Below, in pieces: positions 2,937-62,251 of a stretch of 64,000 nucleotides of DNA. This DNA comes from a phage, in the sequence record PZ809289.1; one strand, 5' to 3'. Both the position numbers and the translations under genes were made by a program. Numbering within the stretch: the stretch's first letter is position 1; each line of letters starts with the position of its first letter. A model generated the notes under the pieces. The model ran no database searches, was not told the origin of the DNA, and saw nothing but the letters and a program-made list of their open reading frames with translations.

Positions 2937-3052
2937 TTAGCATTTTAAATGGGAGCAACCTGGACCTCACAATTCTGTGAGGGACTCCCGCCAACCTGTA
3001 ATAAGGTCGAGCCCAAGTGCGGTAATGGGTAAATGCAGAAAGGGACGAATTA

Positions 3053-3613
3053 ATGTGCCAAGGAACGGCCCTCAAAGGAAATACTATGAAATTTTTAACC
3101 CCTATTTATCTAACCTTAATGCACGCCTTCGCTGAACGCGCCATTGAACGTTTAGACTCAGACCAATATACCTGGTATGAACCTACTTCACGAATGCAAG
3201 AGTTTGGTACTCTTCGTCTTGATGGCGGTCGACAAACGGGTAAAACAAGTGCCATTGCGCAGTTTGCTGCGGATTGGGTTTCCAAAGGTAATGATGTGAT
3301 TGTTATGTCGAGTTCTTCGCATCGCTCGCGAGAAATTTGTAATATAATAAAACAGGTTTCTAAGGCACACCCACATCTCCAAGTCGAAGGTCCCGGTTTT
3401 GTTGTCTATGATACCGTGCGCAGTTTCCTTGATGAAGACAATTTCCATAAGTATCGTGGACTATCTGTTACTCGATTATTGATTATTATCGAAGAGCCAA
3501 TGCGCCTTCCAACGATGGATAAGTTCTATGAAGCTTACCAGGTAATGATTAATAAATTTATGTGCCAAGGCGACAAGCCTTTGCCTCTGTTCTTTGTGAT
3601 AGGAATGCAATGA
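3053..3613 (+). CDS. Hypothetical protein with P-loop-like GRQTGKTS motif (186 aa; alternative start 3086)
   Basis: ORF with RBS AAGGGA before ATG 3053; second RBS AAGGAA before ATG 3086; Walker-A-like DGGRQTGKTS. Confidence 0.55.
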   Translation: MCQGTALKGNTMKFLTPIYLTLMHAFAERAIERLDSDQYTWYEPTSRMQEFGTLRLDGGRQTGKTSAIAQFAADWVSKGNDVIVMSSSSHRSREICNIIKQVSKAHPHLQVEGPGFVVYDTVRSFLDEDNFHKYRGLSVTRLLIIIEEPMRLPTMDKFYEAYQVMINKFMCQGDKPLPLFFVIGMQ

Positions 3614-3906
3614 TGACCGATGAAGAACTTTTTGAGTTCTGTTATTTCTCACGTAAGGTCCGAAGAGAGGACCTTACTGCAAATTTCGAATATGCTTATT
3701 TCTACCCACTAGAATACGTGTTCATGACAGGGCCCTTTAAGGGCTCTCGTTTTAGATGTCATGCTCCTAGTATCCGATTAATGAAACAGGTTCCTTACTT
3801 CACTCTCGAGTTCATCTCAGGGCCTTGTAAGGGTATTATTACTCGTAGTCTCTTGACTTATGACCAAGAGATTCATATGATTTCTGACTGGAAAAAATAT
3901 GTCTAA
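3610..3906 (+). CDS. Hypothetical protein (98 aa)
   Basis: ATG overlapping upstream stop (ATGA coupling); track ORF begins at upstream GTG 3562. Confidence 0.5.
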   Translation: MMTDEELFEFCYFSRKVRREDLTANFEYAYFYPLEYVFMTGPFKGSRFRCHAPSIRLMKQVPYFTLEFISGPCKGIITRSLLTYDQEIHMISDWKKYV

Positions 3907-4117
3907 ATTGACAATTGAAGGCTCTGATGAAGCTCTGAAGATGTTTGTTGACTGGTTCCATGAACAAGGCGAGCATGGCTTTATGGAATGTTGGGATGGC
4001 GGACAATGGAATGGTAAAGAAACCGTTTATCCTAGCACATATATCTCTGTTCGTGGTGGATATGATGGGATTCATTTAGTTGAATATGATATTGCATCTG
4101 ATGAGGAAGTGAAATGA
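3899..4117 (+). CDS. Hypothetical acidic protein (72 aa)
   Basis: ORF overlapping upstream stop; acidic composition typical of T4 early proteins. Confidence 0.5.
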   Translation: MSKLTIEGSDEALKMFVDWFHEQGEHGFMECWDGGQWNGKETVYPSTYISVRGGYDGIHLVEYDIASDEEVK

Positions 4118-4392
4118 TTGAAGATATCAAGGGTTATAAACCGCATACCGACGATAAAATCGGTAAAGTGAATGCTATCAAAGATGCTGAAGTTCGTCTT
4201 GGGTTAATGTTTAAAGCTCTAGAAGAAGAACATGTTACCTATTATATGAACTTAGATACCGAAGAGGTTTCTGAACAAGAACTAGACCAGGCTCATGAAC
4301 GCATTACCCAGATTCGTAATGCAATTGACCGTCTTAAAGAAGCTAGTATGTGGGCTTGTCGCTCTGTGTTCCAACCAGAAGAAAAGTACTAA
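4114..4392 (+). CDS. Hypothetical protein (92 aa)
   Basis: ATGA start/stop coupling with upstream ORF. Confidence 0.5.
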   Translation: MIEDIKGYKPHTDDKIGKVNAIKDAEVRLGLMFKALEEEHVTYYMNLDTEEVSEQELDQAHERITQIRNAIDRLKEASMWACRSVFQPEEKY

Positions 4393-4396
4393 AGCA

Positions 4397-4425
4397 GTTT
4401 ACATCTCCTGTAGGTATGATACTAT
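4397..4425 (+). promoter_or_regulatory. Early promoter with stem-loop (PeSL-like) upstream of regB
   Basis: GTTTAC 4397-4402, TACTAT 4420-4425, CCTATCAAC box, inverted repeat ATCTCCTGTAG/CTACAGGAGAT around the SD. Confidence 0.6.
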
Positions 4426-4453
4426 AAACCTATCAACTACAGGAGATTACAAA

Positions 4454-4912
4454 ATGTCAGAAATTAATTCAGAAGTATTCATCCGCCGCAACAAATTACG
4501 TCGTCAGTTCGAAACCGAATTCCGTGAACTGAATGCGTCCATCAAAAAAGCCGCCATTAAGAGCGGAGTCCCAGCCTTCTTTATTAAGTACTCTAATCAC
4601 TTGTTGGACCGTGCTATCCAACGTGAAATCGACGAAAAATACGTTTTTGCTTTATTCAAGCAACTCCATAACCATGTTAAAGAAATTCATGAATTTTTAA
4701 TCCAGGAACCTCTACCTGATGTAGAATCCGAAATTGTCCCTGGTAAAGTGTATCGTCCATTGCGTCTCGAAATTACCGATAAAACCTTATGGCTAGGTAT
4801 GACAGTAGACCGTAAACATCCTGATAAAGGATACTCATTAAAATGTCGTATGGCATTTGTTAACTCTAAACGTTTAGAAGGTAAAACCAGCACGAAAGTA
4901 ATCTATCTTTAA
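4454..4912 (+). CDS. regB: RegB sequence-specific endoribonuclease
   Basis: MSEINSEVFIRRNKLRRQFETEFRELN...HLLDRAIQREIDEKYVF...LEITDKTLWLG closely matches T4 RegB (about 152 aa). Confidence 0.9.
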   Translation: MSEINSEVFIRRNKLRRQFETEFRELNASIKKAAIKSGVPAFFIKYSNHLLDRAIQREIDEKYVFALFKQLHNHVKEIHEFLIQEPLPDVESEIVPGKVYRPLRLEITDKTLWLGMTVDRKHPDKGYSLKCRMAFVNSKRLEGKTSTKVIYL

Positions 4913-4924
4913 TAATGAGGTCTC

Positions 4925-5464
4925 ATGAAAAAAGTATTAGCCACTTTACTATTGACAGTTAGTATGTCTGCCTATAGCGTAGAGCCTACTTTCAACAGTG
5001 AGCAACTCGACAATTTGCATTATGCATATGCTTTCGGTGAACAATACCAAAAGTCGGGAAAGTTCAAAGAAACCCCTAATCAAAAAGGATTAGGATATAT
5101 TATGGCCGGATTACTATGGCAGGAATCATCCGCCGGAATTAATCAAGGTTTAAATAAAGATAAGCACCATGCTTATGGCATGTTCCAAAATTACTTGCCT
5201 ACGTTAAGAAGTCGTGTTCAACAGGTAGGTTGGAAGATGTCTGACAAAGAAATAATTCGTATGGTCCAAAAACGACAGAACAGTGCCTCTTGGGCCTACA
5301 TTGAGCTGTCTTATTGGATTGATGTTCACAAAGGTGACCTGAGAAAAGCGATTGCTTCTTATAATGCGGGCTGGAACGTCAAAGCAGGCAGTAAATATGC
5401 TTCTGAAGTTCTAGAAAAGGCCAATTATCTAAAATCTAAAAAGATGTTTGAGGCGGTGTATTAA
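4925..5464 (+). CDS. Secreted lytic-transglycosylase-like protein (SLT fold), 179 aa
   Basis: N-terminal signal peptide MKKVLATLLLTVSMSAYS; catalytic-type E-S motif (LLWQESSAGINQG) and AYNAG motif of family-1 lytic transglycosylases. Confidence 0.7.
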   Translation: MKKVLATLLLTVSMSAYSVEPTFNSEQLDNLHYAYAFGEQYQKSGKFKETPNQKGLGYIMAGLLWQESSAGINQGLNKDKHHAYGMFQNYLPTLRSRVQQVGWKMSDKEIIRMVQKRQNSASWAYIELSYWIDVHKGDLRKAIASYNAGWNVKAGSKYASEVLEKANYLKSKKMFEAVY

Positions 5465-5821
5465 ATGATTAAGCAGATGACTATAGCGCTTATGTTGATT
5501 GCTCCGGGAGTATTAGCGTCACAAGTTGGTGATAGTAATAATTCAATTGTCGAGTATGCTACCCGTACAGCAAAAGATTATTGTCATCCGAGCAATACTG
5601 AATGCATTATCGAATTCAGTTCAAAAATCACAGCTGCTTTTAAAGATGGCCAGAACGACGTAGAGCATCGCCGAATGAAAGAGAAAACTCTTTCTAAAAG
5701 ATACGAGCAACGTCTAAACGTTACTGAATGTATTCCATCTGATAAAAAGTACAAAGAAATGTGCGCGTCTATGGTAGACAGACTCGTTGACTCATACAAC
5801 CGAGGATTAAACTCTAAATGA
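5465..5821 (+). CDS. Secreted/periplasmic hypothetical protein (118 aa)
   Basis: Signal-peptide-like N-terminus MIKQMTIALMLIAPGVLASQ; TAAATG coupling. Confidence 0.55.
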   Translation: MIKQMTIALMLIAPGVLASQVGDSNNSIVEYATRTAKDYCHPSNTECIIEFSSKITAAFKDGQNDVEHRRMKEKTLSKRYEQRLNVTECIPSDKKYKEMCASMVDRLVDSYNRGLNSK

Positions 5822-6285
5822 TTATTGATTATATTAAGGGCGATATCGTCGCCCTGTTTCTTCAAGGTAATAATGTTGCACACGGGTGCAACTGTTTCCA
5901 CACAATGGGTTCAGGTGTAGCTGGGCAATTGGCTAAGGCTTATCCGCCTATTCTCGCTATCGATAAAACTACTTATTTAGGCAATTTGGCAAAACTTGGC
6001 ACGTTTACTCAAGCTACAGGTAATAATGGCCAAATTTGCTATAATTTATATACCCAATACGAACCAGGCCCTAATCTTGATTATGGTGCTTTAGTAAACT
6101 GTATGATAGAATTAAATCAACAAGCAAAAGGTCTTTTGTTTAAACCAAGAATTTATATCCCTCGCATTGGTTGTGGTATTGCTGGTGGTGATTGGGACAA
6201 GGTTTATCAATTGATTAATTTGTTTACTCCTGATATTAATTTAGTGGTGGTAGATTATGAAAGCCCATTACCCGCATCCGTTTGA
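5818..6285 (+). CDS. Macro-domain protein (155 aa)
   Basis: Motifs VAHGCNCFHTMGSGVAGQLAKA (N-terminal Gly-rich ADP-ribose-binding loop) and IPRIGCGIAGGDW (C-terminal macro motif). Confidence 0.65.
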   Translation: MIIDYIKGDIVALFLQGNNVAHGCNCFHTMGSGVAGQLAKAYPPILAIDKTTYLGNLAKLGTFTQATGNNGQICYNLYTQYEPGPNLDYGALVNCMIELNQQAKGLLFKPRIYIPRIGCGIAGGDWDKVYQLINLFTPDINLVVVDYESPLPASV

Positions 6286-6469
6286 CCCTAAAAACAAAGC
6301 GGAAATTATTCGACGCTGGACCGAAACACGAGTAACTAAATGCCCTATAAAAAGTCAACACAACACCGATAAATGGTATATTGGTGAATATGTTGAATAT
6401 ACTTTTATAGATAAAAATAAACGTAAACAGCATGTAGAAGAATATTGCTTAAAGGTGCAATGGTTATGA
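6257..6469 (+). CDS. Hypothetical protein (70 aa)
   Basis: ORF overlapping end of macro gene; weak RBS. Confidence 0.4.
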   Translation: MKAHYPHPFDPKNKAEIIRRWTETRVTKCPIKSQHNTDKWYIGEYVEYTFIDKNKRKQHVEEYCLKVQWL

Positions 6470-6651
6470 GTCTGAGTAAAGAACAGAAAGATAAATTGTT
6501 TGAGCTTATCCATGAACTTCTAGATGAGCATGCAGAAGCAAATTCTTTTTATGATGAATATGGCCCGCTATCTCCCGAACATCAGGAAGAATTTGTCAAT
6601 CGATTTGATGAGAAAGAAAACGAATTAATAGCTTATGTGAATACGCTTTAA
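6460..6651 (+). CDS. Hypothetical acidic protein (63 aa; alt starts 6445 TTG, 6466)
   Basis: RBS AAGGTG 5 nt upstream of ATG 6460. Confidence 0.45.
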   Translation: MVMSLSKEQKDKLFELIHELLDEHAEANSFYDEYGPLSPEHQEEFVNRFDEKENELIAYVNTL

Positions 6652-6660
6652 GAAGGTAAT

Positions 6661-7398
6661 ATGGCAAAGGAATTCCATTATAATTACTTGACTGTAATAA
6701 AAACCCATAAGGCAAATTATTACTATGTAGGTAAACACTCCACTGATAATCTTTCAGACGGGTATTATGGAAGTGGTACGGTAGTTAAAAATATTTGTAA
6801 AAAGCATCCTTATAAAACTCGTATATTAGAATTCTTCGAATCTGAAGAAGAGGCGTATGCCGCCGAAATTCCTTTAGTTGAAAAGGCTAAATTAAAATAT
6901 GGTAAGCATTCTTTAAATTTTGCTGATGGCGGAAGAGGTAAAAAGAAAGGAACCAAATTATCTAATTTAACTAAACAGAAAATGTCTAGGTCTAGAAAAG
7001 GAGTTAAATGGAGCAAAGCCAGAATAGAAGCTTCTAAATTCACCACTTCTAATAAAGGTTTAAACCATTATTCCAATAGAATAGGATTTAGTGATGAGCA
7101 TAAAGCTAAAATAGGATTAGCCTCTAAAAAATTAAAAGGATTTAAACATAGCGCTGAAACCATAGAAAATATGAGTAACGCCAAAAAGGGCAAAAAGAAT
7201 CCCATGTACGGTAAAAAGGGCGCTATGGCAGGAAAACCTTCTCCTATAAGAAACGAATCTTGGAAATTTTACGATGAATTAAAACTCTTATGGGAAGAAT
7301 CCAATAAGCCTTCAGCATATATGTTTAAAAAGATAGCTATAAGCAAAGGTTATCCTAATTGCTCTTATAGAGGAGTTGTATTTAAATGGCAAGCTTGA
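6661..7398 (+). CDS. GIY-YIG homing endonuclease (Seg-like) with NUMOD3-type repeats
   Basis: YNYLTVIKTHKANYYYVGKHS GIY-YIG core; repeated NPMYGKKG-type motifs; inserted just upstream of tk. Confidence 0.75.
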   Translation: MAKEFHYNYLTVIKTHKANYYYVGKHSTDNLSDGYYGSGTVVKNICKKHPYKTRILEFFESEEEAYAAEIPLVEKAKLKYGKHSLNFADGGRGKKKGTKLSNLTKQKMSRSRKGVKWSKARIEASKFTTSNKGLNHYSNRIGFSDEHKAKIGLASKKLKGFKHSAETIENMSNAKKGKKNPMYGKKGAMAGKPSPIRNESWKFYDELKLLWEESNKPSAYMFKKIAISKGYPNCSYRGVVFKWQA

Positions 7399-7958
7399 TG
7401 TTTCACTATGCGGCGATGAATTCCGGGAAAACCGCTTCATTGCTAACGGCAGCTCATAACTACAAAGAACGTGGTATGGGCGTACTCCTTTTAAAGCCTG
7501 CGATAGACAATAGAGAATCAAGCCATAGCATTTCGTCTCGTATAGGGATTAGTCAAGAGGCTAATGCCGTGACTCCGGATATGGACCTATACGAGTTCTA
7601 TCGTTGGGCTGAATCTCAAAAAGATATCCACTGTGTATTTGTGGATGAAGCACAGTTCTTAGAACCTGCACAGATAAAACAACTGGCAAAGATAGTAGAC
7701 AATTATAATGTTCCGGTTATGTGCTATGGACTAAGAACTGATTTTCAGGGTAAACTGTTTCCTGGCTCTGCTGAATTACTCGCTACAGCAGATAAACTCG
7801 TTGAGTACAAAGGTGTGTGCCATTGCGGCCGTAAAGCTACTATGACGGCTCGTATCCAGGATGGTATCGCAATTAAGGACGGCGCCCAAGTTTCTATAGG
7901 TGGCAACGATTCTTACGTGTCATTGTGCAGGAAGCACTGGATAGAAATAACGAGTTGA
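7386..7958 (+). CDS. tk: Thymidine kinase
   Basis: MASLMFHYAAMNSGKTASLLTAAHNYKERGM... with Walker A and C-terminal zinc ribbon CHCGRKAT...C; matches T4 Tk. Confidence 0.95.
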   Translation: MASLMFHYAAMNSGKTASLLTAAHNYKERGMGVLLLKPAIDNRESSHSISSRIGISQEANAVTPDMDLYEFYRWAESQKDIHCVFVDEAQFLEPAQIKQLAKIVDNYNVPVMCYGLRTDFQGKLFPGSAELLATADKLVEYKGVCHCGRKATMTARIQDGIAIKDGAQVSIGGNDSYVSLCRKHWIEITS

Positions 7959-7965
7959 GGGTATT

Positions 7966-8244
7966 ATGGACCTAAATTCAAAGATTTTAATTCTAGCGTT
8001 CGCTGTGGCCATTTCTTATATTGTTCTTTCGCCTATCATGGATGATGTGGCTTACAAAAGAGAGATAGAGGTTGTAGCAGCGACGTATAATGCTAATAAT
8101 AAAGAGTGTCCTAATAAAAATGGGATGGATTTAATTAAAGCGCATTATATGCTTTCCATTACCTCGCCTATACAGAGGAATTGGGTTGAATATAATTTTA
8201 ACGACGTGTTCTATTCTTATTGTCGTAAGCTTAAAAAGCTATAA
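7966..8244 (+). CDS. Hypothetical membrane-anchored protein (92 aa)
   Basis: Hydrophobic N-terminus ILILAFAVAISYIVL. Confidence 0.5.
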   Translation: MDLNSKILILAFAVAISYIVLSPIMDDVAYKREIEVVAATYNANNKECPNKNGMDLIKAHYMLSITSPIQRNWVEYNFNDVFYSYCRKLKKL

Positions 8245-8247
8245 ATA
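8240..8247 (+). promoter_or_regulatory. T4-type late promoter box TATAAATA
   Basis: Exact TATAAATA about 90 nt upstream of lipoprotein ORF 8337. Confidence 0.4.
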
Positions 8248-8336
8248 ATAATACTAACCGTAGAGCTTTAGCTTTTGGTAATCGCTATCGGTTAAGGCCG
8301 AAAGGCAAATAGTATAAAACAACAAAGGACTTTTGT

Positions 8337-8630
8337 ATGGATATTTTCCGTACAGCGGCTTGTATCCTTATGGCGGGATGTTTAAGCCCTACAGTTTCAC
8401 TAGCAAATAATACCAATGATAAATTGATGGATGCATTTGCTAGTAGTGCGATGCCTGTTTATGCGCAAATGAGTAGACCCAGCGTAAAGGCCTCCGAAGA
8501 CTATTGGGCCTATGTTACGGCTTCCTGGAAGATTTCAAGTTGTCGGACTATAGAAGCGTGCTCAATTGAAGGTCGGGCCATCGGAGAGCGTTATGTAAAA
8601 CTAATGAAGGTGGAAGATGAAGTTCAATGA
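8337..8630 (+). CDS. Predicted lipoprotein (97 aa)
   Basis: Lipobox ILMAGC near N-terminus; RBS AAAGGA. Confidence 0.55.
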   Translation: MDIFRTAACILMAGCLSPTVSLANNTNDKLMDAFASSAMPVYAQMSRPSVKASEDYWAYVTASWKISSCRTIEACSIEGRAIGERYVKLMKVEDEVQ

Positions 8631-43924: not shown

Positions 43925-44357
43925 GATTAACAGAAATTTAGTTATCAAAAAACTTCGTTGTAAAAATCCAAATGCACAAGCATACAGGATGTTTTGGAGC
44001 GACGACCACCAATACCTGGGTTATTTTCTTGTTGATAGCGATGATCGAATTACAATGGCTCATAAACTTCTTAACAGAGAATTAAACCATTGGCAAGAAC
44101 TTATCGCGGTGAGGTCTAAATTATTTTCGTGCAATACAATGCACCAATTGGTTTATTTTTTCGCTGAAGGTATTCCTGACAAGGTTGAGTTTGATGGATT
44201 CGAATTTAAAGACATCCTCCCAGACAACGAATTGAACGACCGCGTTAATATGGACATCCCTAGCAAGTATATCAAAAACAGTCTGTTGAAAATTCTGGAA
44301 GCTCCGGTTTATTCAATAGATGACCAGATTTTTAATGCCTTTATGAATCGAGGTTAA
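43917..44357 (+). CDS. Hypothetical protein (146 aa, GTG start; first ATG at 43989)
   Basis: RBS AAAGAGG before GTG. Confidence 0.45.
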   Translation: MNKINRNLVIKKLRCKNPNAQAYRMFWSDDHQYLGYFLVDSDDRITMAHKLLNRELNHWQELIAVRSKLFSCNTMHQLVYFFAEGIPDKVEFDGFEFKDILPDNELNDRVNMDIPSKYIKNSLLKILEAPVYSIDDQIFNAFMNRG

Positions 44358-56747: not shown

Positions 56748-57428
56748 ATGAAATATATAACATACTTAACAATATATGATGGAACAAAGCTACCTCCATT
56801 TTATATAGGCTCCACTTATTTGGATAAACACCTAGCTGGATATCATGGTTCGGTGACATCCAAAAAGTACGAAGACCTATATAATAAAGAGCTTGAGGAA
56901 CATCCTGAATTATTTGATAGCATGATTTTGGGTGAATTTGAAACCAGAGAAGAAGCTACATTTTGCGAGCTTTATTACCAAAAACTTTATAACGTGGTCA
57001 AAAGTAATTTATTTTTCAATATGGCATATGCTACCGTTGACGGATGTTTTGGTATGGATGTTTGTAAAGAAAATAATCCATTTTGGAACCATAAACATTC
57101 TGAAAGTACATTAAAAGCCCAATCTGATGCTAAGATTGGAGAGCTTAATCCTATGTACGGGACTAAACGCCCTGAGCATTCTAAAGCAATGTCAAAAGAA
57201 AATAATCCTTTTTATGATAAGAAACACACCGAAGAAGGATTGGTTAAGTGTGGAATTAAAAATCGTAAAAGTCCGGTATGGGAATATGAATCTGCTTTAG
57301 AAAAATTATGGTTAGAATTAGATAAACCTAAATTGGCTATGTTTATGCGAGAAAGTATTAAACGCGGTTTTCCTGAAGGTTCATACAAAAATATTTTACG
57401 ACAATTCGAGAGAAGACATAATGATTGA
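56748..57428 (+). CDS. GIY-YIG homing endonuclease (Seg-like), paralog of 23983
   Basis: MKYITYLTIYDGTKLPPFYIGSTYLDKH...; NUMOD3 repeats NPFWNHKHSE, NPMYGTKRPEHS, NPFYDKKHTEEG; directly upstream of gene 39. Confidence 0.75.
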   Translation: MKYITYLTIYDGTKLPPFYIGSTYLDKHLAGYHGSVTSKKYEDLYNKELEEHPELFDSMILGEFETREEATFCELYYQKLYNVVKSNLFFNMAYATVDGCFGMDVCKENNPFWNHKHSESTLKAQSDAKIGELNPMYGTKRPEHSKAMSKENNPFYDKKHTEEGLVKCGIKNRKSPVWEYESALEKLWLELDKPKLAMFMRESIKRGFPEGSYKNILRQFERRHND

Positions 57429-59241
57429 TAATAAAATTGAAATGCTTAGTATTAAAGAACACGTTATTAAACGCCCTGGAATGTACATAGGAAGTGTATC
57501 ATTCGAGGACCATGAACGTTTTCTCTTTGGCGAATTTAAAAAAATTCGTTATGTTGCGGGTGTTCTCAAATTAGTAGATGAAATCATTGATAACTCTGTC
57601 GATGAAGCCATTCGTACCAATTTTAAATTTGCAAATAAAATCTCAGTTGGTATTGATTTAAAAACTAATAAAGTTACTGTAGAAGATAATGGTCGTGGCA
57701 TTCCACAGGCTATGGTTATTACTCCTGAAGGTGAAGAAATCCCAGGACCTGTGGCTGCCTGGACCAAGACTATGGCAGGTGGTAACTTTGGCGACGATAA
57801 AGAACGAGTCACGGGTGGCCAAAACGGTGTAGGCTCAAGCTTAACAAATATTTTCTCTACATTGTTTACAGGTGTAACTTCAGATGGCAAAAATGAGCTA
57901 TCAGTAAATTGTTCTAATAACGCCGATAACGTTTCTTGGAAAACCAAAGCATCTAAAGCCAATGGAACAAAGGTTGAATTTATTCCAGATTTTACCCACT
58001 TTGAAATGTCGGCTTTTGACCAAATCTATTTAGATGTTACTTTAGACCGTTTGCAAACCTTGTCAGTGGTTTATCCCGACATAGAATTTAAATTTAATGG
58101 TAAAAAGGTTCAAGGCCAGTTTAAAAAATATGCTAAGCAGTTTGATGAAGAAGTTGTAACTCAAGAACAAGAAACATGCTCTATTGCAATCGGTCGAAGC
58201 CCTGACGGATTCCGTCATTTAACTTATGTGAACAATATTCATACTAAAAATGGTGGCCATCACATTGAATGCGTAATGGATGATATGTGTGATGAATTGA
58301 TTCCAGCTATTAAAAAGAAATATAAAATCGAAGTAACTAAGGCTCGCGTTAAAGAATGTCTAACTATGTTGATGTTTGTCCGTGGAATGAAAAACCTTCG
58401 TTTTGATTCCCAGACTAAAGAGCGTTTGACTAGCCCTTATGGCGAAATCCGTAGTCATATTCAGTTAGATACTAAAAAGTTGGCCAAAAGCATTCTGAAT
58501 TCTGAAGCAGTATTGATGCCCATTATCGAAGCTGCTTTAGCACGTAAATTAGCAGCTGAAAAGGCTGCCGAAACTAAAGCCGCTAAGAAAGCTTCTAAAG
58601 CCAAGGTCCATAAGCATATTAAAGCTAACCTATACGGCAAAGATGCTGATACAACCCTGTTCCTAACCGAAGGTGATTCCGCTATGGGTCCTTTCATTGA
58701 AGTCCGTAATAAAGACCTTCAAGGTGGCTATCCATTACGTGGTAAGGTTATGAATACCTGGGGAATGACAGCAACAGATATCATGAAGAACAAGGAACTA
58801 TTTGATATCTGTGCAATCACTGGATTGGTTATTGGTGAACCTGCAGAGAAAACTAACTATCGTAATATTGCTATTATGACTGATGCCGATGTGGATGGTA
58901 CTGGCTCGATTTATCCATCATTGCTAGCCTTCTTTAGTCAATGGCCTGAATTGTTCGAACAAGGCCGAGTACGTTTCTGTAAAACACCTGTAATTATTGC
59001 CCAGGTTGGTAAAGAACAAGAATGGTTCTATGATGTTCCTAGTTATACCAAAGCTAAGGACTCTCTACCAAAACATTCTATTCGGTATATCAAAGGACTA
59101 GGTTCTCTTGAGAAAGCTGAATACCGTCGAATGATTCAAGACCCTAAATTTGATGTGGTTCAATTACCTGAAGATTGGAAAGAACAGTTCGAAATGCTCC
59201 TTGGTAATGACCCACAACTCCGTAAGGCCTGGATGTCGTAA
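57421..59241 (+). CDS. 39: DNA topoisomerase II large subunit (GyrB-like ATPase), unsplit 39+60 form
   Basis: 606 aa; GHKL ATPase N-terminus aligning to T4 gp39, continuing without interruption through the region T4 encodes as gene 60. Confidence 0.9.
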   Translation: MIDNKIEMLSIKEHVIKRPGMYIGSVSFEDHERFLFGEFKKIRYVAGVLKLVDEIIDNSVDEAIRTNFKFANKISVGIDLKTNKVTVEDNGRGIPQAMVITPEGEEIPGPVAAWTKTMAGGNFGDDKERVTGGQNGVGSSLTNIFSTLFTGVTSDGKNELSVNCSNNADNVSWKTKASKANGTKVEFIPDFTHFEMSAFDQIYLDVTLDRLQTLSVVYPDIEFKFNGKKVQGQFKKYAKQFDEEVVTQEQETCSIAIGRSPDGFRHLTYVNNIHTKNGGHHIECVMDDMCDELIPAIKKKYKIEVTKARVKECLTMLMFVRGMKNLRFDSQTKERLTSPYGEIRSHIQLDTKKLAKSILNSEAVLMPIIEAALARKLAAEKAAETKAAKKASKAKVHKHIKANLYGKDADTTLFLTEGDSAMGPFIEVRNKDLQGGYPLRGKVMNTWGMTATDIMKNKELFDICAITGLVIGEPAEKTNYRNIAIMTDADVDGTGSIYPSLLAFFSQWPELFEQGRVRFCKTPVIIAQVGKEQEWFYDVPSYTKAKDSLPKHSIRYIKGLGSLEKAEYRRMIQDPKFDVVQLPEDWKEQFEMLLGNDPQLRKAWMS

Positions 59242-60040: not shown

Positions 60041-62251
60041 ATGATTATTGAAACCGAAAAAGAACAAATCATTGGTAATGGTGCTAAGTCCACAGGCTTT
60101 ACTATTCAGGCATCGCCTAAGGTCTTTAAAATTTTGTCATCAGACCTTTATAGTAATAAAGTACGTGCCGTAGTTCGTGAACTGATTACTAACATGATTG
60201 ATGCCCATATTCTAAATGGTAATAAAGAACGTTGGAAAGTACAGGTTCCTGGTAAACTGGACCCTCGCTTTGTATGCCGTGACTTCGGGCCGGGTATGAG
60301 TGATTTCCAAATTCGTGGTGATGAAAACGAAACAGGTTTGTATAACTCTTATTTCGCGTCGTCCAAAACCGCTTCTAACGATTTCATCGGCGGCTTTGGC
60401 CTTGGTTCAAAATCTCCGTTCAGTTATACCGAAACGTTTAATATTACCTCATGGCACAATGGCGAAGTTCGCGGTTATGTAGCATATATGGATGGTGATG
60501 GCCCGCAGATTAAACCTACTTTCGTAGAACCTATGCAGCCAGGTGATAAAACAGGTATCGAAATCACGGTTCCTGTTGATGAAGAAGATTTCCGTAAGTT
60601 TGAAACTGAAGTTCGTTATATCATGCGGCCTTTCATTGGTCTTGGTGATGTAGACGGTGTTGAAGTTGATTATTTCCCTGAATTTGACGATTACCATCCT
60701 GTAACCACTACAAATTATGGCAGCTTCGAACGTTCAGGACTTTATGCAGTTTATGGTGGTATTGTTTATCCATTGGATTCCGCCTATAATAAAGGCACGT
60801 GGATGCGTACTCGCCATGATGTAGTTTATATTAAGTTCCCTATGGGTTCACTGGATATTGCTCCTTCTCGTGAAGTGTTGTCTCTTGATAAACGTACGAT
60901 GGAAAATATTGCAACCCGTATCGAAGCACTGGATGCAGTGGTCTTTAAAAACGATACACAGGAATGGGTTGAATCTGATAATCCACGCCATGTTTATCGT
61001 GACCTTTCTAACCTTGGTTACAGTGCTCGTGACTATCTTACCAAAAAAGGTGGAACTAGCCTGTTTACTACAGAAAAATTGACATATGAGAAATTATACC
61101 AGCGTTATACCCTTCAAAACGACCTTATTAATTTAGGTGTGGTTTACGAAGTCGTTTCAGACCCACGTTTGAAACGAATTAAGTCAAGTGGTAATACTTC
61201 TTCGGTAGCAGGACTTAGTAATTTATTAGGCATTAATAAGAAAGAAATCCATGTTGTTTATGATGATGAAAAAGGTCGTGTGCCATTAGTTCGAGGTCTT
61301 TGGGCTCTGGCAATGGACAACAGTGCTTCGGCTAAGAAAATTGTTAAAGAGAACAATATTCCTAAATACGGAACTGACCTTATTTTTGTCGACCCAAATT
61401 CAATGTTGCAAATGCAACAACTTGAAAAGGTTAAAGAACTTTTTAAAGGTGACACAATTCATTTTTATAAAGTCTCTGAACTGAATAAAATTGTTAAGCC
61501 ATGGATTCCGGTTACTGTCCGTTCATCAGAACCGCGTCCTAAAACACCGAGTGCTTATCGTTGGTTCATTAAAGACGGGCGCTGGCAACAAGAGACCATG
61601 TATTTGACTGCTGCCGAAGCAGAAGAAATTACAGGTTATGTTCTGTTTGGCAGTCGTTCTGATATTATGGGAATGGATGAAGCTTATGGTATCTTTGACA
61701 TCAATACCACTACCATGTGTCGTATGGCTAATTTGATTGGTGCTACCGAATTCCATATCATTCGCCCTCAGATTGCCAAAAAGATTAAAAAGTTAGGCCA
61801 ATGCGAATGCTTGATGGAAGCTACATTAGAAGCTTATGCTGAAGCCTTAGACGCGGTAGATGTTGATGACTACCTTGGTAGCAATACTCGAGCTCGGTAT
61901 TACCTTGAAATCATTGCTAAGTTCCCTCAGCTTAATTTCATGACCAAGTATTTCAGTGATAAGCCGGTAACTGAAGCATATACTCGTCTGAGTAATTTCT
62001 ATGATATATTCCGTTATATGAATTTCCATGGTTATATCACTGATGATAAGCTTTCCGTTATCAAGAAAATTTGTAACAATACTTTTTTTAAGTTGACTGA
62101 TAATGCTTCAAGCAACAATGATAAAATGACTGTACAGTTTGAATCTGATTACCATTTAGTTTCGGACTACATGTATCGTCGTGGAACATCCATTACCGAG
62201 GCTTCTGTAGCTCAAATTGTTAAATTCATGAAAGCCGTGGAAGCGGCTTAA
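60041..62251 (+). CDS. rIIA: rIIA membrane-associated protein (lysis-inhibition/exclusion locus)
   Basis: 736 aa; N-terminal GHKL-like motif VRAVVRELITNMIDAH and GFGLGSKS; size and position match T4 rIIA. Confidence 0.9.
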   Translation: MIIETEKEQIIGNGAKSTGFTIQASPKVFKILSSDLYSNKVRAVVRELITNMIDAHILNGNKERWKVQVPGKLDPRFVCRDFGPGMSDFQIRGDENETGLYNSYFASSKTASNDFIGGFGLGSKSPFSYTETFNITSWHNGEVRGYVAYMDGDGPQIKPTFVEPMQPGDKTGIEITVPVDEEDFRKFETEVRYIMRPFIGLGDVDGVEVDYFPEFDDYHPVTTTNYGSFERSGLYAVYGGIVYPLDSAYNKGTWMRTRHDVVYIKFPMGSLDIAPSREVLSLDKRTMENIATRIEALDAVVFKNDTQEWVESDNPRHVYRDLSNLGYSARDYLTKKGGTSLFTTEKLTYEKLYQRYTLQNDLINLGVVYEVVSDPRLKRIKSSGNTSSVAGLSNLLGINKKEIHVVYDDEKGRVPLVRGLWALAMDNSASAKKIVKENNIPKYGTDLIFVDPNSMLQMQQLEKVKELFKGDTIHFYKVSELNKIVKPWIPVTVRSSEPRPKTPSAYRWFIKDGRWQQETMYLTAAEAEEITGYVLFGSRSDIMGMDEAYGIFDINTTTMCRMANLIGATEFHIIRPQIAKKIKKLGQCECLMEATLEAYAEALDAVDVDDYLGSNTRARYYLEIIAKFPQLNFMTKYFSDKPVTEAYTRLSNFYDIFRYMNFHGYITDDKLSVIKKICNNTFFKLTDNASSNNDKMTVQFESDYHLVSDYMYRRGTSITEASVAQIVKFMKAVEAA

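Follow-up and report, generated by a model that had tools for sequence, protein, structure and literature searches.

A free-standing macrodomain in a T4-like phage, the ortholog of T4 Tk.4 (AdfM), is a probable orphan antitoxin against DarT2

The tk.4 locus and its orthology with T4

The window, the whole 64,000-nucleotide stretch of record PZ809289.1 analysed here, is T4-like (Dhakavirus-type) phage DNA. On its + strand, an open reading frame at 5818..6285, from an ATG through the stop codon, codes for a single-domain macrodomain protein of 155 residues, Tk.4 or AdfM; the initial annotation had placed the frame at exactly these positions. The protein is 100% identical to a protein of phage QL01, and its relatives are encoded in 2,734 phage records. 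Two syntenic neighbours, identified from the IME08 and T4 annotations, flank the gene on the same strand: vs (5465..5821, +), coding for the valyl-tRNA synthetase modifier and lying ahead of the gene in 22/79 related loci, and tk.3 (6257..6469, +), a DUF7202 gene (Pfam, E=2.5e-37) that overlaps the 3' end of tk.4 by 29 nt.

The translation start region, read directly from the sequence (5802..5821, +), has a Shine-Dalgarno motif, GAGGA, at 5802-5806, upstream of the tk.4 ATG. The stop codon of vs and the start codon of tk.4 share the ATGA at 5818-5821, suggesting that the two genes may be co-transcribed and translationally coupled. We found no evidence for a dedicated tk.4 promoter in a sigma-70 scan of 3500-8500, which covers T4 early and middle promoters poorly and returned 13 sites, against 15.1 expected by chance.

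The gene order regB-vs.1-vs-tk.4-tk.3-tk.2-tk is common to the window, IME08 and T4. The initial annotation knew of no macro domain at this position in T4. T4 Tk.4 (NP_049723), however, occupies the same slot between vs and tk.3, has the same length of 155 residues and is 53% identical to the window protein (E=4e-62), so that the window gene is no unusual acquisition. T4 Tk.4 matches only 5818-6270 within the window, a unique reciprocal hit, and the T4 genome has a single place matching the window protein. The genes regB, vs.1 and tk are retained around the gene in 28/79 related loci; they comprise the loci with roughly 50% identity or more and, in addition, two disrupted copies (L032 and L033). 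In a neighbour-joining tree, calculated with no bootstrap values, the window protein falls inside the syntenic T-even clade with T4 Tk.4, and it has the traits of the Tk.4 group: a single domain of about 155 residues, H22, N25, Q80 and an 8-residue loop after the Gln. T4 Tk.4 shares H22, G23, N25 and Q80 with it, and the 5' intragenic hairpin described below is common to both genes. The two proteins differ in the diphosphate loop, which is IGCGIAGGDW (the family consensus) in the window protein and IGAGIGKGNW in T4 Tk.4, and they have strongly diverged over residues 44-79. Judged by gene order, tree position and shared residues, the frame is an ordinary ortholog of T4 tk.4, since renamed adfM (anti-DarT factor, macrodomain). 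The T4 protein carries the label 'phosphatase; contains A1pp phosphatase motif' in RefSeq NC_000866.

Macro fold and active site of Tk.4

The initial annotation had called a macro domain from two signature segments, both of which are present, VAHGCNCFHTMGSGVAGQLAKA (residues 20-41) and IPRIGCGIAGGDW (residues 114-126), and had suggested profile and structure comparison as a check. Both approaches returned macro-fold matches. Pfam Macro (PF01661) matched with a score of 33.4 bits (gathering cut-off 22; E=4.9e-8) over profile positions 2-117 of 118, and PHROG 335 matched with E=6e-67. An AlphaFold2 model of the protein (pLDDT 94.6, pTM 0.89) was compared with the PDB using Foldseek; the top 20 matches were all macrodomains (probability 1.00, TM 0.68-0.77), and the best included TARG1, Poa1p, DarG and Bt_1257. 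By profile and model, the window protein is a genuine macro domain with a predicted three-layer α/β/α fold. [quoted passage not shown]

Homolog alignment and residue mapping place the first ADP-ribose-binding loop at residues 21-35 (AHGCNCFHTMGSGVA; 5878..5922, +). Within it, H22, G23, N25 and G33 are unchanged across 69 homologs. H22 corresponds to H24 of SCO6735, G23 to V25, and N25 to N27 of SCO6735 and N23 of PhiKZ AdfM, whose N23A substitution lowered activity (PMC13309987). The glycine-rich diphosphate-binding loop was assigned to residues 115-126 (PRIGCGIAGGDW; 6160..6195, +) by alignment to TARG1, Bt_1257 and SCO6735. Here P115, G118 and G120 are invariant and G123, G124 and W126 nearly so among the 69 homologs, and Ala122 sits at the position of TARG1 Asp125.

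The catalytic position was assigned to Gln80 (codon CAA, 6055..6057, +) by profile-to-PDB and multiple alignment, with a check of SCO6735 numbering. This column holds Gln85 in SCO6735, Lys84 in TARG1 and Lys80 in DarG. A pairwise BLASTP alignment with PhiKZ AdfM put Gln80 one column off the Lys; the placement rests on the profile and multiple alignments, which match the published structure-based equivalence. The Gln is invariant across the 69 homologs, and the Q85A form of SCO6735 is inactive (PMC9411070). An invariant Gln in Tk.4 proteins, as in SCO6735, at the position where DarG, TARG1 and PhiKZ 'AdfM' have the catalytic Lys appears to be new. In one syntenic ortholog (L027), position 80 is naturally Lys and the loop has a DarG-like form, GGLEW, suggesting that Gln-type and Lys-type active sites may interchange within the T-even clade. 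Fold, orthology, synteny and conserved active-site residues are all observations on the window protein itself.

An intragenic hairpin and a hypervariable cassette

A terminator scan detected, 20 nt into the reading frame (5837..5865, +), a conserved hairpin with a GC-rich stem of 8 bp (AGGGCGAT-ATC-GTCGCCCT) and a run rich in T after it. T4 has the same hairpin, in the corresponding region 61,350-61,390 of its genome, and so does every lineage whose protein includes the peptide KGD(I/L)(V/I)AL; in two loci (L013 and L014) a G-C pair has changed to A-T in a compensatory manner at synonymous sites. Its stability exceeds that of 99.5-100% of synonymous recodings, and its 81-nt context has z = -2.13. 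A scan of 5400-6700 against Rfam (E<=1) gave only two sub-threshold chance matches, to a snoRNA and a lncRNA fragment, which leaves the hairpin outside all described RNA families. In form it resembles a terminator or an Hfq-binding module. Contacts of the T2 tk.4 mRNA with Hfq and ArcZ have been reported, and the hairpin and its U-tract may be the site behind them.

A hypervariable, recombining cassette covers about residues 44-79 (5948..6055, +) and separates tk.4 alleles on near-identical phage backbones. Between the window and a related locus (L006), the cassette has 43-50% nucleotide identity, whereas both flanks have 92-100%. On near-identical backbones, Tk.4 is 78% identical at the protein level while the flanking genes are 97-100% identical.

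A proposed role against DarTG2

In T4, tk.4 was the single significant hit of HIDEN-SEQ, a transposon screen, on a DarTG2 host, and a clean tk.4 knockout made T4 sensitive to DarTG2 (bioRxiv 10.1101/2025.11.20.689424). This evidence is genetic (screen and knockout), comes from a preprint and concerns the T4 protein only. The initial annotation had guessed that the protein reverses an ADP-ribosylation-based host defence in hosts carrying DarTG, a guess borne out by the T4 ortholog, and the experiment it proposed is essentially the 2025 knockout (bioRxiv 10.1101/2025.11.20.689424). It was known earlier that T4 without adfA and adfN retains DarTG2 resistance. AdfA (T4 gp61.2) is matched in the window only by a C-terminal remnant of 14 residues, at 44313-44354, and AdfN (gene 30.3) lies outside the region covered.

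Several observations on related proteins bear on the activity. SCO6735 removes thymidine-linked ADP-ribose from DNA and rescues cells from DarT in a manner that depends on Gln85 (PMC9411070), and DNA de-ADP-ribosylation by PhiKZ AdfM was demonstrated biochemically (Cell Rep 2026, PMC13309987). The Tk.4 protein is expressed during T2 infection. The sole match of the window protein in the PADLOC defence library is DarG, in its macrodomain part (E=2.4e-6), and its best NCBIfam match is antitoxin DarG. With a probability that we put at roughly two in three, this Tk.4/AdfM ortholog would act as an orphan antitoxin against DarT2 by DNA de-ADP-ribosylation, a chemistry that for the window protein, as for any Tk.4-type protein, we infer by analogy.

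In the proposed mechanism, Tk.4 would be made early in infection, alongside vs. Host DarT2 would ADP-ribosylate thymidines of single-stranded phage DNA, blocking replication; the cleft of Tk.4, formed by the loops at 21-35 and 115-126, would bind the ADP-ribose, and hydrolysis of the ribose-thymine bond would restore the phage DNA. Catalysis would probably be SCO6735-like, with Gln80 positioning the distal ribose and a backbone-held water attacking, a route that would differ from the Lys-dependent one of DarG and TARG1. Neither characterised mechanism transfers cleanly, because the protein is without the Lys of DarG, Val25 of SCO6735 and the Lys-bearing mobile loop of SCO6735. The specificity of the window allele could also differ from that of T4 Tk.4, since the two are only 53% identical and a 36-residue cassette distinguishes the alleles.

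Alternative activities

Tk.4 could instead act like Poa1p or phage Adpp, as an ADP-ribose-1''-phosphate (ADPR-1P) phosphatase. It would convert ADPR-1P made by RES-domain NAD+-cleaving defences (aRES) to ADPR, whether for detoxification or as a supply for rebuilding NAD+. The legacy 'phosphatase / A1pp' annotation goes back to this activity, and databases call the family 'phosphatase'. Yeast Poa1p, an ADPR-1''-phosphate phosphatase, is a top structural match of the window protein and is among its top sequence matches. Adpp of Vibrio phage Gary (KNV71_gp137), which dephosphorylates ADPR-1P as assessed by LC-MS and is required to overcome aRES, belongs to the same broad family; it shares about 38% identity with the window protein, as well as the H-x-C-N-C motif and a Gln in the catalytic column, and a Kronos relative (94% identical to Gary Adpp) matches the window protein at 38% identity (E=5e-24). 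Adpp, however, functions within an Adps-Adpp-Namat operon (NARP1-AP), and no Adps or Namat homolog was found in the 64-kb window. Such a gene lies within 3 kb in 0/28 syntenic T-even loci, and only 6 distant loci have one. Moreover, Gary and Kronos Adpp branch outside the T-even clade in the neighbour-joining tree (again with no bootstrap values). The loop after the Gln has 14-16 residues in Adpp (15 in that of Gary) and in most NARP1-linked relatives, but 8 in all 24 T-even sequences, and position 32 is Arg in Gary and Kronos Adpp and Lys in the NARP1-linked phiAbaA1 protein, but Ala, Ser or Gly in all 24 T-even sequences. The sole phenotype known for a T-even ortholog is sensitivity to DarTG2. 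Because the NARP1 partner genes are missing and the clade is different, we consider the phosphatase unlikely. It also seems possible that the two activities coexist in one protein; macrodomains are often promiscuous.

That Tk.4 removes ADP-ribose from proteins or RNA, thereby reversing a host ADP-ribosyltransferase defence or tuning the modifications made by phage Alt, ModA and ModB, is in our view very improbable. TARG1 and SCO6735 de-modify proteins too, TARG1 also acts on RNA ends, and the phage does encode ModA (49610-50248) and ModB (48998-49579) in the same window as tk.4, as the initial annotation had stated. T4 Alt, ModA and ModB, however, modify arginine, and ALC1-like macrodomains are not known to cleave arginine-linked ADP-ribose. 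The link of tk.4 to modA and modB was rejected, as they lie about 43 kb away and are unlinked. Regarding RNA, SCO6735 is inactive on 5'-phosphate and 2'-OH RNA ADP-ribosylation, and T-even phages, which carry tk.4, are reportedly still sensitive to the mRNA-ADP-ribosylating CmdTAC system. We give hardly any credence to an action that needs no catalysis, either direct binding and block of DarT2 ('interaction-inhibition') or sequestration of the Thoeris signals gcADPR or His-ADPR. In vitro, catalytically dead forms of SCO6735, DarG and TARG1 are all inhibitors of DarT, that of SCO6735 being the strongest (PMC9411070); a fast-evolving, recombining surface cassette is the pattern expected of a protein-protein interface in an arms race, and Thoeris II effectors use a macrodomain to sense His-ADPR. 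Nevertheless, the invariance of the catalytic-site residues in 69 homologs argues for an enzyme, the window protein is without the C-terminal DarT-binding domain of DarG, tk.4 has no reported Thoeris phenotype, and the anti-Thoeris sponges known so far have other folds. A search of papers on CmdTAC, Thoeris II and DarTG1 turned up no mention of Tk.4. An Acb2/Tad1-hairpin protein, an anti-Thoeris sponge, is encoded separately in the window, at 4114-4392.

The orphan antitoxin reading has a more specific form, which we regard as doubtful. In this form, the T-even Tk.4/AdfM proteins would be DNA ADP-ribosylglycohydrolases of a lineage with its own mechanism, Gln-type and short-looped, using neither the chemistry of DarG nor the full chemistry of SCO6735, and their recruitment against DarT2 would have been independent of that of the DarG-like PhiKZ 'AdfM'. 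The hairpin and U-tract would gate their expression, and the cassette at residues 44-79 would tune their specificity, for example by direct inhibition of different DarT2 variants or by a preference for DNA-ADP-ribose or ADPR-1P as substrate.

Implications for annotation and host range

Much about this gene is already known: the T4 gene has been annotated since the genome paper, GenBank holds an identical protein, and the anti-DarTG2 role was described for T4 in 2025. Many database records call the product 'hypothetical protein' or 'phosphatase' and could now read AdfM-like macrodomain; one 2026 preprint labels tk.4 'putative thymidine kinase'. The name AdfM is now in use for two non-orthologous proteins, one with a catalytic-position Gln (T4), the other with a Lys (PhiKZ). 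Since the broad phage macro family includes a proven ADPR-1P phosphatase (Adpp), function should not be transferred within it without a check of clade and gene context. For phage therapy and host range, the tk.4 allele may predict resistance to DarTG2-carrying hosts, a prediction to be made allele by allele.

Comparison with known macrodomains

DarG, the antitoxin of DarTG2 (PDB 5M3I, 5M31/5M3E; NCBIfam NF048014), has the same fold as the window protein (Foldseek probability 1.00, TM 0.72-0.73) and the same presumed substrate, DarT2-modified thymidine. The two are only about 20% identical, and Gln80, aligned with the lysine of FPTK in each of the two DarG structures, stands in place of the catalytic Lys80 (T. 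aquaticus numbering). The DarG profile score is 20.6 bits against a cut-off of 250, and the NF048014 and PADLOC profiles of DarG are matched only at positions 3-138/338 and 3-142/329, respectively. Membership of DarG was rejected, as the window protein is without the C-terminal DarT-binding domain, the catalytic Lys and an adjacent darT, its neighbours being vs and tk.3. PhiKZ gp104, also a free-standing phage macrodomain acting against DarTG2 and independently given the name 'AdfM', shares the conserved Asn and is imported into the phage nucleus (PMC13309987). It is, however, only 20% identical to the window protein, is of the DarG type, with FPTK and the catalytic Lys, and groups with DarG, not with Tk.4, in the neighbour-joining tree.

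SCO6735 of Streptomyces coelicolor and Bt_1257 of Bacteroides (PDB 5E3B, 2FG1/2AFC) are the best PDB sequence matches; the family profile matched these structures with E=4e-20 and 4e-17, the latter value being that of SCO6735, the nearest relative that has both a solved structure and a tested function. Both are cellular, not phage, proteins, about 27-28% identical to the window protein, and both have its catalytic-position Gln and, in the first loop, the same His and Asn. In contrast, Gly23, invariant in the Tk.4 family, stands where the subclass is expected to have Val or Ile and where SCO6735 has the mechanistically important Val25, whose proposed role is backbone-mediated (PMC9411070), and a Ser stands at the position of SCO6735 Lys34. 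The SCO6735 subclass is also characterised by a longer 'mobile loop' with Lys89 and Lys93 (PMC9411070); the loop after the Gln has 13-14 residues there, 5 more than the 8, none of them lysine, in the window protein. With this defining loop missing, membership of the subclass was rejected despite the matching Gln. Human TARG1 (C6orf130; PDB 4J5R) is the best Foldseek match (E=5.6e-10, TM 0.77-0.85), with about 21-23% identity and the same short post-catalytic loop. Its Lys84/Asp125 catalytic dyad is replaced by Gln80/Ala122 in the window protein, and TARG1 too removes the ADP-ribose that DarT attaches to DNA (PMC9411070).

A conserved macrodomain gene of the T-even phages

The ORF at 5818..6285 (+ strand) starts with ATG and codes for 155 residues. 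Its start codon shares the sequence ATGA (5818-5821) with the stop codon of the upstream gene, and a Shine-Dalgarno sequence, GAGGA, lies 11 nt 5' of the ATG. The initial annotation had placed a 155-aa ORF with two macro-domain signature segments here; its coordinates were exact, and both segments were found. The protein matched the Pfam Macro profile almost end to end (33.4 bits; curated threshold 22; E=4.9e-8) as well as PHROG 335 ('phosphatase'; E=6e-67). Among solved macrodomains, Bt_1257 (Bacteroides), SCO6735 (Streptomyces coelicolor), Poa1p (yeast), DarG and TARG1 (human) were matched at the sequence level. An AlphaFold2 model, obtained with 69 homologs as input, was very confident (pLDDT 94.6, pTM 0.89). 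When the model was compared with the PDB using Foldseek, a check of the kind proposed initially, the best matches were TARG1, Poa1p, DarG from M. tuberculosis and T. aquaticus, and Bt_1257, with a probability of 1.00 throughout and TM values of 0.72-0.77; a lack of macro-fold hits was thus clearly not the outcome. The profile score, the sequence matches, the model and the structural comparison all confirm the domain. We conclude that the macro domain is real, and that its first reading was correct and its interpretation sensible.

A megablast search with 5000-7500 matched 526 T4-like phage genomes, the closest being of the Dhakavirus type (IME540, QL01, IME08 and JS10 among them). The IME08 RefSeq record names the counterpart tk.4, in the gene order regB, vs.1, vs, tk.4, tk.3, tk.2, tk, and Pfam scans around the gene in the window confirmed RegB, Tk.3 (DUF7202), Tk.2 (DUF7438) and thymidine kinase. 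A QL01 protein in GenBank is identical to the window protein. A tblastn search of 50,697 phage records found relatives in 2,734, T4 among them, where the gene lies beside vs. T4 Tk.4 also has 155 residues and is 53% identical to the window protein (E=4e-62); searched against the window, it matched only the ORF at 5818..6285. The macro domain was formerly known as A1pp. RefSeq labels the T4 protein 'phosphatase; Tk.4; contains A1pp phosphatase motif', and the initial remark that T4 was not known to have a macro domain at this position was therefore mistaken.

Both regB and vs.1 upstream and tk downstream are kept in 28 of 79 related loci from viral contigs, that is, those with at least about 50% identity plus L032 and L033. 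In a neighbour-joining tree, computed without bootstrap support values, the window protein falls within this syntenic clade, alongside T4 Tk.4. The tk.4 matches in L032 and L033, both from T-even-like genomes, are partial (3001-3246 only and 3210-3446 only, respectively), and may represent disrupted or truncated copies. Macro domains were found in 41% of myoviruses in a published survey (PMC9503650). There is thus nothing unusual in the gene, which is the conserved tk.4/adfM of T-even phages; annotation of a macro domain in this family is of long standing, and an anti-DarTG2 role was recently reported.

Function of the tk.4 product

A knockout assayed on hosts carrying DarTG had been suggested in the initial annotation, and for T4 this experiment has already been done. 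When a transposon library of T4 was screened on a host expressing DarTG2, tk.4 alone came out as significant, and T4 with a clean knockout of the gene became sensitive to DarTG2 (November 2025, bioRxiv 10.1101/2025.11.20.689424). In the same preprint the gene was given the new name adfM, and its product was proposed to remove ADP-ribose from DNA (bioRxiv 10.1101/2025.11.20.689424). The result fits the earlier observation that T4 lacking adfA and adfN is still resistant to DarTG2 (PMC11825919). The label 'putative thymidine kinase' that a 2026 preprint gives to T2 tk.4 is a mis-annotation.

The main alternative is that the window protein is an ADPR-1''-phosphate phosphatase resembling Adpp, a Poa1p-like macro protein found in 15% of the operons for NAD+ reconstitution by NARP1. 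The substrate of Adpp is ADPR-1''-phosphate, which is produced by aRES, a RES-domain NAD+-cleaving defence; once it has been dephosphorylated, NARP1 can rebuild NAD+ (January 2026, bioRxiv 10.64898/2026.01.28.702374). The activity was demonstrated by LC-MS for KNV71_gp137 of Vibrio phage Gary (bioRxiv 10.64898/2026.01.28.702374), which shares 94% identity with the protein of phage Kronos; the latter in turn shares 38% with the window protein, and the old 'phosphatase' label thus has some substance. As the main role here, however, this activity is disfavoured: no Adps/Namat homologs were found in the 64-kb window, and Adps/Namat occur within 3 kb of the macro gene in none of the syntenic T-even loci, as against 6 distant loci. 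Gary Adpp lies outside the T-even clade in the tree, and unlike the T-even proteins, Adpp and most NARP1-linked relatives have 14-16 residues in the loop that follows the catalytic Gln, with Arg (Gary and Kronos) or Lys (phiAbaA1) at position 32. The phosphatase activity and DNA de-ADP-ribosylation could also coexist in the same protein. There is little support for a product that reverses ADP-ribosylation of protein or RNA, including that by the phage's own ModA/ModB. Both enzymes are encoded by the phage, as had been noted, but their genes (48998-50248) are unlinked to tk.4; SCO6735 has no activity on RNA-linked ADP-ribose, and the mRNA-ADP-ribosylating CmdTAC is still effective against T-even phages. 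Little also speaks for a protein that binds DarT2 or Thoeris signals without catalysis, as an active site so strictly conserved points to an enzyme.

Directly beside the macro gene of several distant relatives lie genes annotated as ribose-phosphate pyrophosphokinase and nicotinamide phosphoribosyltransferase. Distant Tk.4-like macro genes are found in or abutting Adps/Namat (NARP1) in Acinetobacter phage phiAbaA1 (L084), Vibrio phages Kronos (L085) and Gary (L086), and loci L034, L076, L077, L080, L081 and L082. These genes show 35-44% identity, belong to unrelated phage lineages, and often have overlapping stop and start codons; the arrangement is the NARP1-AP/Adpp described previously (bioRxiv 10.64898/2026.01.28.702374). 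Because the NARP1-linked copies are scattered across the tree, linkage to NARP1 may have had more than one origin.

Features within and around tk.4

A GC-rich, 8-bp hairpin followed by a T-rich run is found 20 nt into the tk.4 ORF (5837-5865, + strand). Its counterpart in T4 (3019-3045 of the T4 locus, L002) is unannotated, and no Rfam family matched the hairpin. It is kept from T4 to Dhakavirus-type phages, being present in every lineage with the peptide KGD(I/L)(V/I)AL and absent from lineages with a different peptide. In two loci, L013 and L014, a compensatory change from G-C to A-T affects two synonymous positions, and a Watson-Crick pair takes the place of a wobble. Among synonymous recodings of the peptide, 99.5-100% are less stable than the native hairpin (p about 0.001). 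Hfq typically binds modules of this kind, in which a U-tract follows a hairpin, and the tk.4 hairpin may act as such a module, or else as a terminator or attenuator. Hfq-bound chimeras described in a 2026 preprint pair T2 tk.4 mRNA with the host sRNA ArcZ.

In the related loci L006, L007 and L028, the genes flanking tk.4 code for proteins 97-100% identical to those of the window, and Tk.4 is 78% identical. The alleles diverge only in 5948-6055 (aa 44-79), just before the catalytic strand, with 43-50% nucleotide identity against 92-100% on both sides. Such sharp bounds between near-identical flanks point to a cassette that was swapped or evolves rapidly, and suggest either recombinational allele swapping or diversifying selection.

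The vs.4 homolog (4114-4392, + strand; 92 aa) carries the Pfam Acb2/Tad1 hairpin domain (E=1.3e-15), and is thus another putative anti-defence gene, of the cyclic-nucleotide sponge type, at a distance of 1.4 kb upstream of tk.4; anti-defence genes would then cluster in the early region. Between tk.2 and tk lies a NUMOD3 homing-endonuclease-like gene (6661-7398, + strand; 245 aa) with a GC content of 0.33 versus 0.39 for the window. It is presumably a sporadic mobile insertion, because at least 80% of 5000-7500 is covered in only 4 of the 526 related genomes. T4 gp61.2 (AdfA, anti-DarT1 factor) is matched in the window only by its last 14 residues (44313-44354, + strand; 100% identity), and the gene as a whole seems to be missing or to have been replaced; in IME08 its slot is occupied by orf29-31. 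Gene 39 (topoisomerase; 57421-59238, + strand), whose product is 81% identical to that of IME08, is likely a further mosaic segment; nearby rIIA, srd, modA, modB and gene 43 show 96-99% identity to IME08.

The active site compared with known macrodomains

The family profile was aligned to solved structures, and residue numbers were verified against the SCO6735 paper (PMC9411070); with a chain offset of 20, H24, V25, N27, K34, Q85, K89 and K93 all agreed. Gln80 of the window protein (codon CAA, 6055-6057, + strand) aligned with a Gln of Bt_1257, Gln85 of SCO6735, Lys84 of TARG1, the FPTK lysine in both DarG structures and the corresponding lysine of PhiKZ AdfM. Ala122 is the counterpart of TARG1 Asp125. 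Gln80, His22, Gly23 and Asn25 were invariant among 69 homologs. SCO6735 hydrolyses thymidine-linked ADP-ribose on DNA and rescues cells from DarT, and the Q85A substitution inactivates it; its authors proposed that the Gln positions the distal ribose for attack by a backbone-held water (PMC9411070). In view of the alignment and these data, catalysis by T-even AdfM would probably follow the Gln route, and not the lysine route of DarG and TARG1. The window protein is not a plain SCO6735-type enzyme, however. It lacks the longer 'mobile loop' with Lys89 and Lys93 that defines the SCO6735 subclass (all 24 T-even sequences have 8 residues after the Gln, the subclass 13-14), and has Gly at the position of Val25.

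Membership of the DarG family was likewise rejected: the DarG profiles are matched over their macrodomain third alone, with a score of 20.6 bits (cut-off 250), and no darT gene neighbours tk.4 in the window. A syntenic, T-even-type Tk.4 ortholog with 51% identity (L027, 3001-3453; IMGVR_UViG_2974573495_000001) has Lys in place of the otherwise invariant Gln80 (NLYTKF) and a diphosphate loop, GGLEW, resembling that of DarG. It would represent a natural switch to the DarG/TARG1 type of active site, which suggests that the Gln and Lys versions are interchangeable within the T-even clade.

Of residual interest in tk.4 are its Gln-for-Lys active site, a possible overlap in activity with Adpp, the hairpin, the variable cassette, and a pair of non-orthologous proteins that share a name. 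AdfM was also, independently, the name given to PhiKZ gp104, a macrodomain protein that is imported into the phage nucleus and strips DarT2-installed ADP-ribose from a TNTC oligonucleotide in biochemical assays (Cell Reports 2026, PMC13309987). PhiKZ AdfM has a catalytic Lys where T4 Tk.4 has Gln. It shares only 20% identity with the window protein and clusters with DarG, and on these grounds the T4 and PhiKZ proteins are not orthologs.
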